This document shows positions 33,702-52,568 of a stretch of 64,000 nucleotides of DNA, piece after piece (position 1 is the stretch's first letter; every line of letters starts with the position of its first letter). The notes below the pieces were generated by a model. That model did no database searches. It saw only the letters and a list, made by a program, of their open reading frames with translations, and was not told the DNA's origin. The position numbers and the translations under genes are program-made. Location of the stretch: assembly GCA_016180525.1 (NCBI GenBank), contig JACPBB010000001.1, positions 169,180 through 233,179 of the forward strand. The letters are read 5' to 3'. Source of the DNA: Parcubacteria group bacterium (GTDB lineage: Bacteria > Patescibacteriota > Minisyncoccia > Phycocordibacterales > UBA2135).

Positions 33702-33897
33702 AACAATGTTAATAACCGCACATTCACGGCCTTTAATGGTGACTTCACCGGGATAAGAACAACTGGGAAACCCACGGTTTTCCCAATCCTTCCTCCACGG
33801 GGAACTACCGTTCCCCGACCTCCTCCCGTTCAAATCCAGGAGAAAGATTCATTAAGTAAAATTAAATCTATTTTCAACAGATTTAATTTTACTTATG

Positions 33898-33972
33898 TGA
33901 CCTCACCGGGATTTGAACCCGGGTTTCAGCGTTGAGAACGCCGCGTCCTGGACCAGGCTAGACGATGAGGCC
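33898..33972 (-). tRNA. tRNA-Glu (anticodon CUC)
   Basis: Minus-strand GGCCTCATCGTCTAGCCTGGTCCAGGACGCGGCGTTCTCAACGCTGAAACCCGGGTTCAAATCCCGGTGAGGTCA. Cloverleaf with 7-bp acceptor (one G-U), anticodon stem CGGCG/CGCTG, loop TTCTCAA (anticodon CTC), T-arm CCGGG-TTCAAAT-CCCGG. No encoded CCA. Confidence 0.85.
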
Positions 33973-46538: not shown

Positions 46539-47831
46539 TTATACGGGAAGATTCGCTGGAGGCTCTGCTTTTTGTGATTCAATTCGTTTGAAAGTCGGCG
46601 TTTCGGAAACTTGACCCGGAAAGTGATAAATAGTTGCAAGTTCTTCTGTATTTAAAACATACGGTTGCCGTTCATACGGGGGGAAAAACCATGAGCGCCT
46701 TCGATATGCGTCAAAAAATTTCCATTTTTTATATAGCAAGCGTCTTCCTTTAGGTGAAAAAAACGGAACCTGAGTTGGCGGATCAAAAAAAGGAATATTT
46801 ATATATTTCTGCCAAGGATAATCATAAGCAGCATAATCTCGTGGTTTAAAGCCGTTTAAATCATTTGAACTGTATTGCTTCATCGTTCCGAATAATCCGG
46901 CAACGTTTGCAGGATTGTATATACTTTTCTTCGCAAGATACAGCCCTCTGATACCACAATCAAGCCCGTGTTTTCCCGTGCTTCTGTCTATGGCCTTAAT
47001 AACATTTCGCTCGCCCTCCGTAAGCATTGAGAACCGAAAATCACTTGTCGCATCTTCAGGAAGCGGACCAGAACGTTCTTTTGCCTCATCCATAATTTTT
47101 TTAGTAAGCTCCTTTCCTTCTTCTTGCCAATTACGTTTACGCCACATTGTTGTAAAATCTTTTTCTCCCTTATTGGCGCGAACAAGAATTTGCACCCACG
47201 CCTGCTCTCCACGCCCCAAATCCCCGAGCCATTCAATAACCGAAAGCATCGGGTCAACCTTGAATTCCTCTTTCGGATCTTTTTCAAGACCATAATCAAC
47301 ATATGTTTTTATTGGATATGGATCGGGCTTGGTTAACTTCCATTCAACAGCAAAAAGATCCCAATCGGAACCTTCTTTTGCGTAGGGAACATCAGCGGTA
47401 TAGTCGGAAACTTCTTTAATTTCCGCTGTTGGATATTGTGAATATATCTGGGTTTCAATAAACTTTTTATACCCCTCACGAGTCCATATTAAAAAACGAA
47501 CATCGCCTTCAACGGAAATCATTTCAAGCGAAAAATCAGCGCGTACTTTTCCTAAAATATATCGGTCATACCAGTTTGACTCCCCGATAGTTTGATGAAA
47601 CGTTCCGAGCACAATTTCCATCGCAAGGGGTGATTTCGGAACATCCCGTGGAACTTTTATCTGGAGTAAAATATATTTTTGTTTGGCGAAAAATTGCTCC
47701 CTCCGAGCAAGCACCCACAGATGCCGAAAAATAAAAACAAGAACTACCGGGAGCGCGTAAATAAAAAATGAAGACGCGTACGCTACAAAAAATGTAAAAT
47801 TTTCTCCTAAAAAATTAAGGGATGCTTCCAT
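46539..47831 (-). CDS. hypothetical membrane-anchored protein (430 aa), translationally coupled to mltG
   Basis: Its stop abuts the mltG start; N-terminal TM helix; no recognised family. Confidence 0.5.
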   Translation of the reverse strand: MEASLNFLGENFTFFVAYASSFFIYALPVVLVFIFRHLWVLARREQFFAKQKYILLQIKVPRDVPKSPLAMEIVLGTFHQTIGESNWYDRYILGKVRADFSLEMISVEGDVRFLIWTREGYKKFIETQIYSQYPTAEIKEVSDYTADVPYAKEGSDWDLFAVEWKLTKPDPYPIKTYVDYGLEKDPKEEFKVDPMLSVIEWLGDLGRGEQAWVQILVRANKGEKDFTTMWRKRNWQEEGKELTKKIMDEAKERSGPLPEDATSDFRFSMLTEGERNVIKAIDRSTGKHGLDCGIRGLYLAKKSIYNPANVAGLFGTMKQYSSNDLNGFKPRDYAAYDYPWQKYINIPFFDPPTQVPFFSPKGRRLLYKKWKFFDAYRRRSWFFPPYERQPYVLNTEELATIYHFPGQVSETPTFKRIESQKAEPPANLPV

Positions 47832-47907: not shown

Positions 47908-48945
47908 TTACGCAACTGTATACATATCGTTATCGTCTTTTTTGAAATACTTTTTGTTCTGTAGATTAACTAAAACAGTGTTTTCTTTCACGTATCGTTC
48001 TTTAAGCACTTTTTCAACGAGATCATCTTTGTGAAGCGAGCCATGCTCTTGTAAAATATCCCGAATTACATCTCGCACAATTCCGTTTGTGTACCCCCAT
48101 TCAGCAAGACCATAAATGCCACGGCCTACAAGCACGAATCGGTCTTTGTCTTTTATAAGTTCATTGTGACAAGTGGCAGTGTGCGCTGATTTTCCAAAAA
48201 GTTTTGTGATTTCTTTGGCAACTTCAGTAAAGTGAAGTGGTGAGCCGTGTCGTCTAATGACCAGATACGCGTAGTCCCGTGCACCACGAGCTCGAATATT
48301 CGGGGAAGACGCAAGCCCCCATTCTCCAAGAGGATTCCTCTGGATCACTTTTGAAATATTGAGCCAACGCCGAAGGGTTTCTTCGTCTTTTCTGTGACGT
48401 TCTTCAACCTCTTTCAGCCGGCTTACGAACATGTCAATAATTTCATTTTCAGCAACAAGATCGTCTTCTTTTAAATTTTTATATAAATCATGGAGTGCCC
48501 GATGAACATGCTGACTTGTCTCTTCATTCTGTACCCAGCGATGTTTAAAATGAGCGTCTTCCCGCTTTTTCTCAAATGGCTCACCAAGCACTAGCAAAAG
48601 ATGGAAATGATTTTGAAGTCCTCTATTTTCTGGAGCAAGGTGCTCAAGCAAATCTTCTTCGGCAACAACGCCTCCAAGCGCGTCAAGCAGATTATGAAGC
48701 TCGGTAAAAGCGTCTTGCTCATTTTTATACGCATCTGATTTCCGAATGCTGTTTAAAGCAAAATTTTCTATTTGGCGAACCCTCTCCCGTGTAATATTGT
48801 ATGTATCTCCGATTGACTCAAGGGTTCTTTTCTTTGGGTCTTTACCCAATCCGAAACGACTCTCTACAACGTCTTGTGCCCGCTCGGGCAACACCAAAAG
48901 TAGGTTTTTGGTGACTTGTTTAGGCTTAAAAGTAAGCGTTTTCAT
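47908..48945 (-). CDS. sigma-70 region-4-like HTH domain protein (putative transcription factor)
   Basis: N-terminal …LPERAQDVVESRFGL…LESIGDTYNITRERVRQIENFALNSI… matches sigma-70 region 4.2. The remaining about 260 aa are unassigned. Confidence 0.55.
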   Translation of the reverse strand: MKTLTFKPKQVTKNLLLVLPERAQDVVESRFGLGKDPKKRTLESIGDTYNITRERVRQIENFALNSIRKSDAYKNEQDAFTELHNLLDALGGVVAEEDLLEHLAPENRGLQNHFHLLLVLGEPFEKKREDAHFKHRWVQNEETSQHVHRALHDLYKNLKEDDLVAENEIIDMFVSRLKEVEERHRKDEETLRRWLNISKVIQRNPLGEWGLASSPNIRARGARDYAYLVIRRHGSPLHFTEVAKEITKLFGKSAHTATCHNELIKDKDRFVLVGRGIYGLAEWGYTNGIVRDVIRDILQEHGSLHKDDLVEKVLKERYVKENTVLVNLQNKKYFKKDDNDMYTVA

Positions 48946-49061: not shown

Positions 49062-51863
49062 CTACTCATGCTTTCTTTTTGTCACAATGCTGACCAGTTT
49101 CCCCTGTACATATAATATCTTTTGTATATCCTTACCCTCTACCCATCTCAAAACTTTGTCAAGTACCTGTGCCTTTTTCTTAATTTCTTCTTCAGTCGTT
49201 TCTTTTGAGATAGTAAATTCATCTCTTACCTTTCCATCCACTTGCACAACAATGGTCATCGTCGCTTTCTCCATTTTTTTCTCGTCATATGGTGGCCATG
49301 TTTCGGTATGAATGGAAGATGTGTGAAGAAGCCCCTTCCACAACTCTTCGGTAACATGCGGCGCAAACGGAGCAAGCAGGCATAATAGCAACTCATACTG
49401 TGTTTTTAAAATTACAGGTTCTTTTTCTAGCGCATTTGCAAAAATCATAAGCGCGGAGACGGCGGTATTAAATTTAAAATTTTCTATATCTTCTCCCACT
49501 TTTTTAATTGTCTGATGAGTGAGTGTTTCCAGTTCCGGATTCAGTGTATCATTTTCTGTCTTGGCAATTTTTTCTTGCAGTTTCCACACACGTTCAAGAA
49601 ATCTTCGCGTACCCGCGATACCTCCCGTGTCCCACGGATAGTGTCCGACGGTATTGTACGGGCCGATGAAGGCAAGGTAGAGACGCACGGAATCTGCCCC
49701 AACCATCTTTACTTGAGTGTCCGGATCAATCACGTTTCCCCAACGCTTACTCATTTTGCGTCCGTCAGTTCCTAAAATAATTCCGCGGTTCATTCGTGAA
49801 AGATACGGTTCTTTTTCTGTCACAATTCCCAGATCAAAAAGTGCTTTGTGGAAAAAACGGGAATACAACAAATGCATTGTCGTATGCTCCGCTCCGCCCG
49901 AATAACGCTTCACCGGCATCCATTGTTTGAGAAGCTTTTTTGAAGCCGGTTCTTTGTCGTTTTTGGGGTCCGTATAGCGCAAAAAGTACCATGAAGAATC
50001 TATAAACGTATCCATAGTGTCATATTCAGAACGCCAGCCTTTTCCGAATATCTTTTCCGTCCTTTTTTTAAGCTCTTTTGAAGACGCGAGCGGCGGCTCC
50101 CCCGTAGGGGTAAAATCAACGTCTGTGGGCAATGTCCATGGCAAGTGCTCCTCTGGAATAGGGTACGCTTTTCCATTTGGGTCATAGACAATAGGTATGG
50201 GACAGCCCCAATATCTCTGGCGGGAGATAAGCCAGTCACGGAGTTTATACGTCGTCTCTTTTTTCCCTTTAACAAACGCTGTTATTTTTTCTTTTGCTTC
50301 CTCGCTTTCCATACCATCAAATTTTCCTGAATTAATCATTGTTCCTTCACCGATAAATAAACGGGTTCCTAAAAGATAAGCGTTGATCGCATCTTTCACC
50401 CTAGGATTCATTCTAGGATGTACAATTGCTTCTTCAAGTGTCAGGGGTACAATTGCTTTTCCTTCGTGCAGGCGAAGTGAGCTCTCATCAATATCACGAA
50501 TATGAGCCGCCCAAATATGGCGATCCGATTCATTCGCCTCAAATGCGCATGTAGAAACTATTTTCTGCTCTCCTAATTTAAGTTCCAGTTCTTCTTCTAG
50601 TTCTCGTGCAAGACTTTGTAAAAAAATAGTTTCTCCCACTTCAATGGCGCCACCAAAGAGCCCTATGCCTCCAGGATTCGTGGGCATACCCTTATCTCTC
50701 TGTTGAAATAGAAACGTCCCAGGACGTTGCTTCGATTCCAAAAATGCCACTACGTGAGTTACTGGTTTTTGTGCCACAACGGTACGAACTGGTAATTTAT
50801 TTTTTTTTGCAAACGCAAAATCACGTTCATCATGCGCAGGTACTGCCATAATCGCTCCCGTTCCATACCCACCGAGAACGTAGTCGGCAACCCATATCGG
50901 AATCTCCTCATTGTTGGCGGGATTTATTGCTTTTATTCCCTTGAGCTCAACTCCTGTCTTTTCTCCCTTTTCAGCAATTCTATCTATATCTTTTTTTGCC
51001 AAAGCATGTTTTATATAACGCTCTACTTCGTTCCAATTTGAAATCTGCAATCTTAAATCTGAAATTATCTTGTGCTCTGGCGCCAATACTAAATATGTTG
51101 CCCCAAATAAAGTATCCGGCCGTGTTGTAAATACCTCAATTTGAAATTTGAGACTTGAGATTTGAAATTTAATCAGAGCACCTTCGCTCTTCCCAATCCA
51201 CGCGCGCTGGGATTGCTTGATTTCTTCCAGCCAGGAAAGTTCCCCGAGGTCTTTAAGAAGCCGTTCGGCATAATCGGTGATTTTTAAAAACCACTGCTCA
51301 AGCTCTTTTTTTTCAACGACTGCTCCGGAGCGCTCTGCTGTTCCATCAGGAAGCACTTGTTCGTTCGCGAGCACCGTTTTATCAATCGGGTCCCAGTTTA
51401 CGACCGCTTTTCCGCGGTACGCAAGTCCTTTCTTATATAGTTGTAAAAAAAGCCACTGTGTCCATTTATAATATTCTGGATCTGACGTAATAACCTGCCG
51501 AGACCAGTCAAACGAAGCACCGATGCTTTTTAACTGTTCCGTCATCCGTGAAATATTCTCGTACGTCCATTTCTTCGGGTCTACTTTGTTTTTTATCGCC
51601 GCGTTTTCCGCAGGCAGACCAAACGCGTCAAATCCGATGGGGAAAAGGACGTTATGCCCTTGCATCCGCTTATAGCGGGCAAAAATATCAGGCACTGCAA
51701 AAGCATACCAGTGGCCGATATGGAGGTTCCCTGACGGGTACGGAAACTCTACAAGTGTGTAGTAATTTTCTTTTTTAGCCGCCGTATCAGGTGTTTTATA
51801 GAGCCCGTCTTTCTCCCACTGTTTTTGCCATTTTTTTTCTATTTTGTGGTTATATTTCTGCAT
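49062..51863 (-). CDS. leuS: leucyl-tRNA synthetase with inserted Nudix hydrolase domain
   Basis: HIGH (…PYPSGNLHIGH…), KMSKS (…KMSKRWGN…) and the editing-domain …AVPAHDERDFAFAKK…. Between …KLPVRTVV… and …GTMINSGKFDG… lies about 145 aa with a Nudix box (GGAIEVGETIFLQSLARELEEELEL), absent from canonical LeuRS. Confidence 0.9.
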   Translation of the reverse strand: MQKYNHKIEKKWQKQWEKDGLYKTPDTAAKKENYYTLVEFPYPSGNLHIGHWYAFAVPDIFARYKRMQGHNVLFPIGFDAFGLPAENAAIKNKVDPKKWTYENISRMTEQLKSIGASFDWSRQVITSDPEYYKWTQWLFLQLYKKGLAYRGKAVVNWDPIDKTVLANEQVLPDGTAERSGAVVEKKELEQWFLKITDYAERLLKDLGELSWLEEIKQSQRAWIGKSEGALIKFQISSLKFQIEVFTTRPDTLFGATYLVLAPEHKIISDLRLQISNWNEVERYIKHALAKKDIDRIAEKGEKTGVELKGIKAINPANNEEIPIWVADYVLGGYGTGAIMAVPAHDERDFAFAKKNKLPVRTVVAQKPVTHVVAFLESKQRPGTFLFQQRDKGMPTNPGGIGLFGGAIEVGETIFLQSLARELEEELELKLGEQKIVSTCAFEANESDRHIWAAHIRDIDESSLRLHEGKAIVPLTLEEAIVHPRMNPRVKDAINAYLLGTRLFIGEGTMINSGKFDGMESEEAKEKITAFVKGKKETTYKLRDWLISRQRYWGCPIPIVYDPNGKAYPIPEEHLPWTLPTDVDFTPTGEPPLASSKELKKRTEKIFGKGWRSEYDTMDTFIDSSWYFLRYTDPKNDKEPASKKLLKQWMPVKRYSGGAEHTTMHLLYSRFFHKALFDLGIVTEKEPYLSRMNRGIILGTDGRKMSKRWGNVIDPDTQVKMVGADSVRLYLAFIGPYNTVGHYPWDTGGIAGTRRFLERVWKLQEKIAKTENDTLNPELETLTHQTIKKVGEDIENFKFNTAVSALMIFANALEKEPVILKTQYELLLCLLAPFAPHVTEELWKGLLHTSSIHTETWPPYDEKKMEKATMTIVVQVDGKVRDEFTISKETTEEEIKKKAQVLDKVLRWVEGKDIQKILYVQGKLVSIVTKRKHE

Positions 51864-51883: not shown

Positions 51884-52492
51884 TTAGTTAAGTACGGCAC
51901 CCAGATTACTTCGCATATTCTCAAACATTTTTTTATGGCCAATACTATTTGGATGAATGCCGTCAATTAAATCATTTTTTGAAAGAAGATTAAAAATTGA
52001 GATAAAAGTTATTTCCTTCGCATGACAAAATTCTTTAATCGCAGCATCGTATTGTTTTATGTTTTCATTATGATAATAAGCGCCCCATGCAGTAGGAGTT
52101 GTCTTTAATTCATCAACGGGAGTAAGCCCGACAAAAATTATTTTTGGGGTAAACCTTCTAGCTGTTTTAAAGATATTTCCAATATTTTTAACAAACATAG
52201 AAAACGGCACGAGAAATGTTTCCTTAGTATCAATAATTTGCGAGTCATTAATTCCTACTGAAACAATAATTATGTCAGGTTTTCGAGCAGTACATTCTGC
52301 CGGAAGCCGCCCTAAAACATCCTGTGTTGTTTCCCCACGAATACCGAGAGCATATATACGAACATCCAATTCATTATTTGCTTGTAATTCAAAATAATTT
52401 CTTAAGCGAGTCGCCCACCCACCCTTTTGGGCGTCTCCTTGTCCATAGACAATACTATCTCCAAAAATACAAACGTTTATTTTCCCTTTCAT
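51884..52492 (-). CDS. SGNH/GDSL-family hydrolase
   Basis: Block I …VCIFGDSIVYG… and block V …DGIHPN…. Confidence 0.8.
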   Translation of the reverse strand: MKGKINVCIFGDSIVYGQGDAQKGGWATRLRNYFELQANNELDVRIYALGIRGETTQDVLGRLPAECTARKPDIIIVSVGINDSQIIDTKETFLVPFSMFVKNIGNIFKTARRFTPKIIFVGLTPVDELKTTPTAWGAYYHNENIKQYDAAIKEFCHAKEITFISIFNLLSKNDLIDGIHPNSIGHKKMFENMRSNLGAVLN

Positions 52493-52568
52493 TGTATGAT
52501 TATCACGCGGACCGAGCACTCAATGCGTTGAGTGCTTGGTTCTCAAAAATACTGGTCGCTAACGCTCC

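Follow-up and report, generated by a model that had tools for sequence, protein, structure and literature searches.

The window analysed here is a 64,000-nucleotide stretch of DNA from a Parcubacteria group bacterium, an uncultured member of the Patescibacteria with a tiny genome, and the element under study is its leucyl-tRNA synthetase (LeuRS) gene, leuS, within which a Nudix domain is embedded. The open reading frame (ORF) lies on the minus strand at 49062..51863 and encodes 933 amino acids (aa) followed by a stop codon. It was identified as a bacterial-type LeuRS from the ORF list, from its TIGR00396 (leuS_bact) score of 951.8 bits against a cut-off of 548.4, and from an alignment with Thermus thermophilus (Tth) LeuRS (1h3n) that runs from end to end (E=1.6e-219). 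Pfam recognized the class I catalytic domain, the editing domain (PF13603, E=2.2e-60) and the anticodon-binding domain in the same protein. An NCBI entry identical to the window protein (P0003) is named 'leucine--tRNA ligase [Parcubacteria group bacterium]' and lies on a 344-kb contig.

Motif searches found the synthetic-site signature of class I enzymes, HIGH, at aa 48-51 (51711..51722; this and all further features of the gene are on the minus strand) and the KMSK(S) loop of the same site at aa 703-706 (49746..49757), and PF08264 (E=2.7e-22) placed the helical anticodon-binding domain at aa 780-892 (49188..49526). The CP1 editing domain, delimited by PF13603 and the 1h3n alignment, comes in two parts. 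The N-terminal part spans aa 220-365 (50769..51206), the best PF13603 stretch being aa 220-370 (profile positions 1-147 of 185), and it holds two motifs assigned by their conservation in relatives: the threonine-rich editing motif TTRPDT at aa 246-251 (51111..51128) and the editing-site motif AHDERD, with its conserved aspartates, at aa 343-348 (50820..50837). The string GTGAIMAVPAHDERD is also present in this editing region, at aa 334. The C-terminal part runs from aa 503 to ~545 (50229..50357) and opens with a conserved G-x-(M/L)-I-N-S strand. When 54 Nudix-bearing and 51 Nudix-less relatives were compared, the TTRPDT and GTG..AVPAHDxRD motifs proved essentially invariant; T246, R248 and T251 are strictly so, and H344, D345, R347 and D348 of AHDERD are unchanged in 105/105 relatives. 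With its synthetic (HIGH, KMSK) and editing motifs intact, the protein is a genuine LeuRS and probably a fully functional one.

Between the two parts of CP1 lies the Nudix-fold domain, at aa 366-502 (50358..50768). In the alignment with 1h3n, aa 1-365 of the query correspond to Tth 1-364 and the sequence from aa 503 onward corresponds to Tth 377 onward, so that 137 residues of the query stand against a 12-residue loop of the Thermus enzyme (Tth 365-376). The insertion site is inside the editing domain, ~20 residues past the AHDxRD motif, and the PF13603 match is broken into two stretches around it. An earlier note on this DNA, made from the sequence alone, had placed a Nudix domain after the conserved end of the editing domain and before the GTMINSGKFDG segment. 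Both the identity and the place that it gave hold up against this alignment and the searches described below: the domain follows the AHDxRD segment and precedes the G-x-(M/L)-x-NS strand. The three strings that it quoted are all present, AVPAHDERDFAFAKKNKLPV at aa 340-359, GGAIEVGETIFLQSLARELEEELEL at aa 404-428 (nt 50580-50654) and GTMINSGKFDG at aa 507-517. Its coordinates, 50390-50760, fall within the insert (aa 368-492) and do not cover its full extent, and its estimate of about 145 extra residues has to be lowered to a net excess of ~125 aa relative to Thermus LeuRS.

Several comparisons identify the insert. Pfam matched aa 371-435 to NUDIX (PF00293) at E=1e-5, the score of 26.0 bits exceeding the gathering threshold of 21.1, and among solved structures the best sequence match was Escherichia coli NudG (2rrk), over 108 residues with E=8.4e-6. 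An exhaustive HMMER scan of 1.84 billion representatives with the insert returned 300 relatives at E<=0.001, the best of them 45% identical (E=2.5e-16). Of the 150 best matches listed, almost every one was a stand-alone protein of ~120-180 aa, and the top relatives that were checked matched Nudix/MutT-type models only. PADLOC and PHROGs profiles likewise gave only generic Nudix matches. The insert alone was modelled with AlphaFold2 from 37 aligned sequences, and the model displayed the expected order of strands and helices with a mean predicted local distance difference test score (pLDDT) of 90.1 and a predicted template modelling score (pTM) of 0.86. Foldseek compared this model with the Protein Data Bank and found 546 matches at E<=0.001 (best E=1.2e-9, template modelling (TM) score up to 0.79), the top ones all being Nudix hydrolases, including M. 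mazei MutT, MutT2, BdRppH, NudG and YmfB. The structure prediction that the earlier note had suggested as a check therefore agrees with it, as does the alignment of the boundaries. Together, the alignments and models confirm a complete, autonomous Nudix-fold domain of ~137 aa, set into a surface loop of CP1 that is hypervariable in length.

To place the domain relative to its host, a two-domain construct comprising aa 215-560 was also modelled (pLDDT 90.3; pTM 0.85, which is the model's estimate of itself). Here the linkers were well ordered, whereas they were poorly ordered in the model of the insert by itself, and the Nudix domain is predicted to pack on CP1 in a fixed, defined way.

The composition of the insert and its surroundings was examined for traces of its origin. 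The GC content at third codon positions is 0.31 in the insert and 0.42 in the rest of the gene, and blocks of the same size taken from the gene range over 0.30-0.51; the low value is at most a weak hint of a different history. A search for mobile-element hallmarks around the insert found only short, chance-like repeats and no transposon-like flanking repeats, and there is thus no evidence of a recent transposon-like insertion.

The catalytic signature of the domain, the Nudix box, spans G405-L428 (50580..50651, from motif and alignment) and reads G-x5-E411-x8-R420-E421-L-x-E424-E425-x-E-L. All acidic and metal-binding positions of the box (E411, R420, E421, E424 and E425) are therefore kept in the query. 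The box is not, however, of strictly canonical form: it follows GX5EX8REUXEEXEU rather than GX5EX7REUXEEXGU, with one extra residue (F414) and a glutamate in place of the penultimate glycine. In the AlphaFold2 model the helix of the box is predicted at aa 414-426, with F414 at its N-terminal end. Conservation was assessed in an alignment of 37 sequences, both inserts and stand-alone relatives. No sequence departs from G405, E421 or E425, and >=90% keep E411, R420 and E424; the earlier note's proviso that the box residues might lack conservation is answered by these counts.

To learn how widely the architecture occurs, we inspected the same CP1 loop in the 120 LeuRS clusters most similar to the query; counts from this set of nearest clusters are lower bounds for the family, and the taxonomy of the relatives is that of the source names of the clusters. 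A Nudix domain sits in the loop in 66 of the 120 clusters, while 51 have a loop of only 5-55 residues and three carry unrelated inserts of 96-172 aa. The source names all belong to the candidate phyla radiation (CPR): Parcubacteria, Kaiserbacteria, Nomurabacteria, Paceibacterota and Doudnabacteria. The survey of relatives that the earlier note had called for thus finds the same insertion in over half of the nearest LeuRS clusters. Searches with the insert alone or with a profile of its type cannot serve for such counts, since every protein that they retrieved was a short stand-alone Nudix protein and no embedded copy, not even the query, was among them; a scan of the genome collection with the alignment of that type gave 2 loci only. 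An open frame and a confident fold are kept in all 66 Nudix-bearing clusters. With a mean net charge of -8, the inserts are as acidic as stand-alone Nudix enzymes ordinarily are. Several of these proteins are named at NCBI only as 'class I tRNA ligase family protein'. The non-Nudix inserts in the same loop measure 131, 96 and 172 aa (P0010, P0018 and P0111, respectively), and a G-G...H-S-D-I-D-V-F-V stretch in that of P0111 recalls a nucleotidyltransferase.

The embedded Nudix domains fall into two types. Type A (~145 aa; 22 clusters, including the window protein) has NudG and MutT as its nearest named families, and type B (~167 aa; 44 clusters) has RppH, ADP-sugar pyrophosphatase and diadenosine tetraphosphate (Ap4A) hydrolase. 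In comparisons with solved structures, type B matched Ap4A hydrolases (3i7u, E=2e-4; 1f3y). The 60 best BLAST matches of the query insert included many stand-alone Nudix proteins and not one type B insert. The two types, unrelated in sequence, were therefore captured independently from different Nudix subfamilies, which makes at least two such captures at the same CP1 loop.

Both types retain near-invariant metal-binding glutamates, and a strictly canonical box is found in 27/43 type B inserts and in 1/22 type A inserts. The replacement of the terminal glycine by glutamate is common to the whole type A group and its stand-alone relatives, whereas the x8 spacing caused by F414 occurs in only 2 of 67 aligned inserts. 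Within type A, further invariant residues include F-G-G, E408 and an H-E-G motif ('LHEG') downstream of the box, which in the window protein lies in the region of aa 465-467 (50463..50471, from the type A alignment); each of its three residues (in alignment A2, H107, E108 and G109) is either invariant or kept in >=90% of type A, and the motif is also found in the stand-alone proteins P0001/P0002. An aromatic residue, typically tyrosine, ~16-18 residues after the Nudix box is typical of diadenosine polyphosphate (ApnA) hydrolases. It is lacking at +16 to +18 in the query (N, E, S) and elsewhere in type A, whereas a phenylalanine or tyrosine is found at +17 in 39/43 type B inserts. A pattern search of the insert for SQPWPFPxS, the NADH pyrophosphatase motif, and for LLTxR[SA]x3Rx3Gx3FPGG, the NuCoA motif of CoA pyrophosphatases, found neither. 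Judged by these residues, the Nudix family in CPR LeuRS looks catalytically competent, and the window copy is probably competent too, with less certainty.

The loop that carries the Nudix domain is not the only such site. A second hot spot in CPR LeuRS corresponds to query aa 238-242, in a hairpin just before TTRPDT (~51138-51152 of the window). Here, alpha/beta-hydrolase domains of 174-320 aa are found in P0004, P0007, P0008, P0094, P0117 and P0122, and DUF559/REase_MTES_1575-like domains of ~136 aa in P0048, P0081 and P0096; the window LeuRS has no insert at this position. P0128, a LeuRS of 1344 aa, combines a Nudix domain with an alpha/beta hydrolase. An isoleucyl-tRNA synthetase (IleRS) is also involved: P0271 (1396 aa), bona fide by its TIGR00392 score of 709 bits against 621, carries two domains at the start of CP1, first a low-molecular-weight (LMW) phosphatase/ArsC-like one (aa 248-385) and then a Nudix domain (aa 405-530).

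We then compared the history of the insert with that of its host gene. A neighbour-joining tree of the LeuRS cores was too poorly resolved for counting gains and losses, and pairwise identities of core and insert were used in its place. The cores closest to the query (73-78% identity) have either no insert or one of type B, and P0004, for example, is 75% identical to the query in the core and 20% in the insert. The main type A clade is, among 119 relatives, the most distant from the query in its core. Within type A the mean identity is 40% for inserts compared with 64% for the core.

The discordance is sharpest between near-identical genes. In P0064 and P0070, identity in 40-aa windows is 92-100% across most of the core and falls abruptly to 27-45% in the insert (loci L007 4080-4578 and L008 4080-4584), whose amino-acid identity is ~30%. 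Divergent inserts in near-identical LeuRS were likewise found in P0099/P0104 (type A) and in P0055/P0058, and P0075/P0097 present the reverse case, with 81% identity in the core and 93% in the insert. At the nucleotide level, the flanks of the P0064/P0070 pair are 84-89% identical by blastn, while blastn found no similarity between the two inserts, which are 46% identical in a codon alignment. Third-position identity is 75% in the flanks and 29% in the insert, non-synonymous divergence (dN) is 0.01-0.04 against 0.75, and synonymous divergence (dS) is 0.44-0.58 in the flanks and saturated in the insert. Neutral drift in situ was considered as an explanation, as the flank dS is ~0.5. At that dS neutral expectation is ~63% nucleotide identity, and the insert, with 46% overall, 29% at third positions and a saturated dS, falls below it; drift was therefore rejected for this pair, and the insert alleles are much older than the split of the genes that carry them. 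The swapped inserts have sharp boundaries, and their flanks are 97-100% identical in protein sequence. This pattern indicates that cassettes have probably been replaced by recombination; very strong diversifying selection is possibly responsible instead.

A separate observation concerns the neighbourhood of one of these loci. At 1340-1786 of L008, two genes upstream of the LeuRS with a type B insert, lies a stand-alone Nudix gene of 148 aa, and its product shares 31-33% identity with type A inserts. In L007, which is closely related, the ORF at the syntenic place (1360-1815) encodes an unrelated protein of 151 aa. Genomes with a LeuRS-Nudix protein can therefore hold further Nudix genes, and the neighbouring slot is variable.

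With respect to function, we consider it somewhat more probable than otherwise that the protein is bifunctional, a LeuRS joined to an active nucleotide pyrophosphohydrolase. According to this model, the LeuRS part would charge tRNA-Leu and proofread as usual, and the Nudix module, packed on CP1, would act as a Mg2+-dependent pyrophosphohydrolase on a nucleotide-type substrate and take no part in the chemistry of aminoacylation. Judged by its closest homologues, NudG and MutT, the module would have a substrate such as a (deoxy)nucleoside triphosphate ((d)NTP), a nucleotide that is damaged, or a nucleoside polyphosphate resembling an alarmone. For NudG and MutT, experiments have established hydrolysis of damaged (d)NTPs and, in addition, conversion of (p)ppGpp to pGp (PMC5845004).

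Several points weigh against this model. The scores of the type A insert against the curated models, 32.9 bits for NudG (NF007834) where 156 is required and 16.2 for MutT (TIGR00586) where 97.9 is required, lie far below the cut-offs, so that no substrate can be assigned from them. The x8 spacing that this copy shares with one other insert and the glutamate at the end of its box lower the certainty that it is active, and the pTM that speaks for fixed packing is a self-estimate. Moreover, a simple housekeeping model does not account for the rapid turnover of the inserts or for repeated capture in the domain that binds the tRNA 3' end, and these hint at a more specific, possibly conflict-related role.

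The first alternative is that the Nudix fold, at least in this copy, is catalytically inactive and serves as a structural, nucleotide-sensing or regulatory module, or is a passenger that the enzyme tolerates. The altered box of the window protein would fit such a module, as would a loop that ranges from 5 to 55 aa and accepts unrelated inserts, and an insert whose sequence diverges much more rapidly than that of the core. If the domain were decaying or had a structural role alone, however, it would not be expected to keep its catalytic residues, and E411, R420, E421, E424, E425 and the G-G pair are retained in the window copy and in both types; nor does the preservation of frame and fold in every Nudix-bearing cluster suggest decay. 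We therefore regard an inactive module as unlikely.

A further alternative is that the domain repairs tRNA 3' ends or counters toxins. Here, the Nudix module would remove a pyrophosphate-linked lesion, such as the 3'-pyrophosphate added by toxSAS/CapRel, and restore a chargeable tRNA-Leu, and the alpha/beta-hydrolase and LMW phosphatase inserts of sister synthetases would complete the repair or handle other lesions. The CP1 domain of LeuRS docks a tRNA's 3' (CCA) end, and the insert is predicted to be held there in a fixed position. Repeated capture of Nudix domains at one loop, the IleRS with an LMW phosphatase and a Nudix domain at the start of CP1, and a cassette-like turnover of the pattern expected of conflict genes all point the same way. 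The nearest characterized relatives, NudG and MutT, cut the 3'-diphosphate of (p)ppGpp to leave pGp (PMC5845004). toxSAS and CapRel toxins are described as pyrophosphorylating the CCA end (PMC11782079); for toxSAS this blocks aminoacylation, with hydrolases as antidotes (PMC11782079; PMC11245113). All of this support is circumstantial, and no toxSAS/CapRel-like gene was seen near these genes, where none was searched for. The inserts are also acidic, with no sign of an RNA-binding surface, and the loop accepts unrelated inserts that do not look like hydrolases, so that it may simply be permissive. On this evidence, tRNA repair by the insert seems quite improbable.

The same line of thought can be extended to the family. 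The CP1 loops of class Ia synthetases in the CPR might be sockets into which hydrolase cassettes can be exchanged. Such cassettes (Nudix domains of two kinds, alpha/beta hydrolases, endonuclease-like domains and an LMW phosphatase) would repair tRNA ends damaged by toxins, phages or defence effectors, for example a 3'-pyrophosphorylated CCA end. We hold this broader proposal to be doubtful. If true, an arms race would have left its footprint in the swapping of inserts among LeuRS genes that are otherwise near-identical.

The earlier note had itself proposed a function, namely that the Nudix domain could clear Ap4A or mis-activated adenylates. In a general form, the domain would remove by-products of the synthetase such as Ap4A/Ap3A or mis-activated aminoacyl-adenylates, as an additional proofreading or signalling activity. 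The physical coupling of a Nudix domain to an adenylate-forming enzyme is in keeping with this idea, and so are the aromatic residue at +17 of type B inserts and their matches to Ap4A hydrolase structures. The type A insert, in contrast, has no such aromatic residue, and its nearest families are NTP pyrophosphatases rather than ApnA hydrolases. Moreover, aminoacyl-AMP belongs to the mixed anhydrides of nucleoside monophosphates and not to the nucleoside-diphosphate-X compounds, and we know of no established case of its hydrolysis by a Nudix enzyme. The canonical CP1 editing site is fully intact and leaves no evident need for further proofreading. Clearance of Ap4A or adenylates would thus suit type B better than type A, and for the window protein we think it a poor prospect.

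Finally, that a chimeric assembly or a mis-called ORF fused a Nudix gene to leuS, as a metagenome-assembled source might allow, is wildly improbable: the identical 933-aa protein was assembled independently on contigs from two sequencing runs and recurs on the NCBI contig of 344 kb, LeuRS sequence flanks the in-frame insert on both sides, the insert has the GC content of the gene (0.436 compared with 0.431), and 65 other clusters from many samples share the architecture.

The bifunctional LeuRS-Nudix protein that we favour can be set against known systems. It resembles the bacterial LeuRS of Thermus (1h3n) and E. coli (4aq7) in being collinear over its full length, with HIGH, KMSK, a CP1 domain containing TTRPDT and AHDxRD, and anticodon-binding and C-terminal domains; it differs from the Thermus enzyme in having the Nudix domain where Tth 365-376 form a loop. 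The two also differ elsewhere, as Thermus LeuRS has a leucine-specific domain (~Tth 581-637) that the window LeuRS is without, aa 699 to 704 (~nt 49752-49769) corresponding to Tth 580 to 638.

NudG (Orf135) is a pyrimidine (d)NTP and 2-OH-dATP pyrophosphohydrolase. The E. coli protein (2rrk) is the best sequence match of the insert among solved structures and its best NCBIfam match; together with MutT/MutT2 it has the same fold (TM 0.67-0.79) and shares with the insert the pattern L-x-Q-R ... G-G-x-(I/V)-E-x-(G)-E ... R-E-L-x-E-E. The insert is nevertheless not a NudG orthologue, since it is only ~29% identical and scores 33 bits against a cut-off of 156; in addition, its box is spaced x8 and has E-L at the end where G-U would be expected, and it is embedded rather than free-standing. 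Closer in sequence are stand-alone metagenomic Nudix proteins of 130-143 aa (P0123, P0273 and P0274), which align with almost all of the insert at 39-45% identity. These relatives share with it the E-L-E-L end of the box, and P0001/P0002 also share L-H-E-G; unlike the insert, they are encoded by free-standing genes in unrelated contexts, and their genomic context offered no consistent functional clue. By the available tests the insert is outside the NudG, MutT, ApnA-hydrolase, NADH-pyrophosphatase and CoA-pyrophosphatase subfamilies.

Class I or II synthetases that carry an extra catalytic domain in the same polypeptide have precedents in NF040702 (isoleucine--tRNA ligase, N-acetyltransferase domain-containing), which is among the NCBIfam matches of the window LeuRS, and in the INS editing domain of prolyl-tRNA synthetase. 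In contrast to these, the partner in the window LeuRS is a Nudix domain, which lies inside CP1 rather than being appended and appears to be exchanged as a cassette among close relatives. A full-text literature search found no paper on a Nudix domain in LeuRS or in the editing domain of any synthetase, and the co-occurrences of the terms that were opened were irrelevant. To that extent the earlier note's remark that it knew of no described LeuRS-Nudix fusion stands; the fusion is not unique, as is clear from the 66 clusters and from the LeuRS-Nudix proteins that already reside in public databases with automatic Pfam NUDIX hits only. On present comparisons, the protein would be a known enzyme with a lineage-wide, exchangeable inserted catalytic domain that the searchable literature has not described.

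Around leuS, the gene directly downstream (47908-48945, minus strand) encodes a protein of 345 aa that matches Sigma70_r4 and, faintly, HARE-HTH, and the next one (46539-47831, minus strand) a DUF8128 protein. A Sigma70_r4/HARE-HTH gene also follows leuS in L007, a distant relative, and the neighbourhood is therefore conserved. Upstream, on the same strand, lies a GDSL-type esterase gene (51884-52519). No other Nudix-like ORF was found in the window, and ARAGORN detected in it a single tRNA gene, tRNA-Glu (CTC) at 33897-33972 on the minus strand.

Aminoacyl-tRNA synthetases are among the most conserved enzymes, and to our knowledge their editing domain seldom has a whole foreign catalytic domain inserted into it. 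The Nudix architecture is the majority state in the closest CPR LeuRS; it arose at least twice, from different Nudix subfamilies, and stands beside insertions of other hydrolases in LeuRS and IleRS. This suggests either that hydrolysis of nucleotides or tRNA ends may be tied to tRNA charging in these minimal genomes, or that domain-level recombination in an essential gene may have gone unnoticed.

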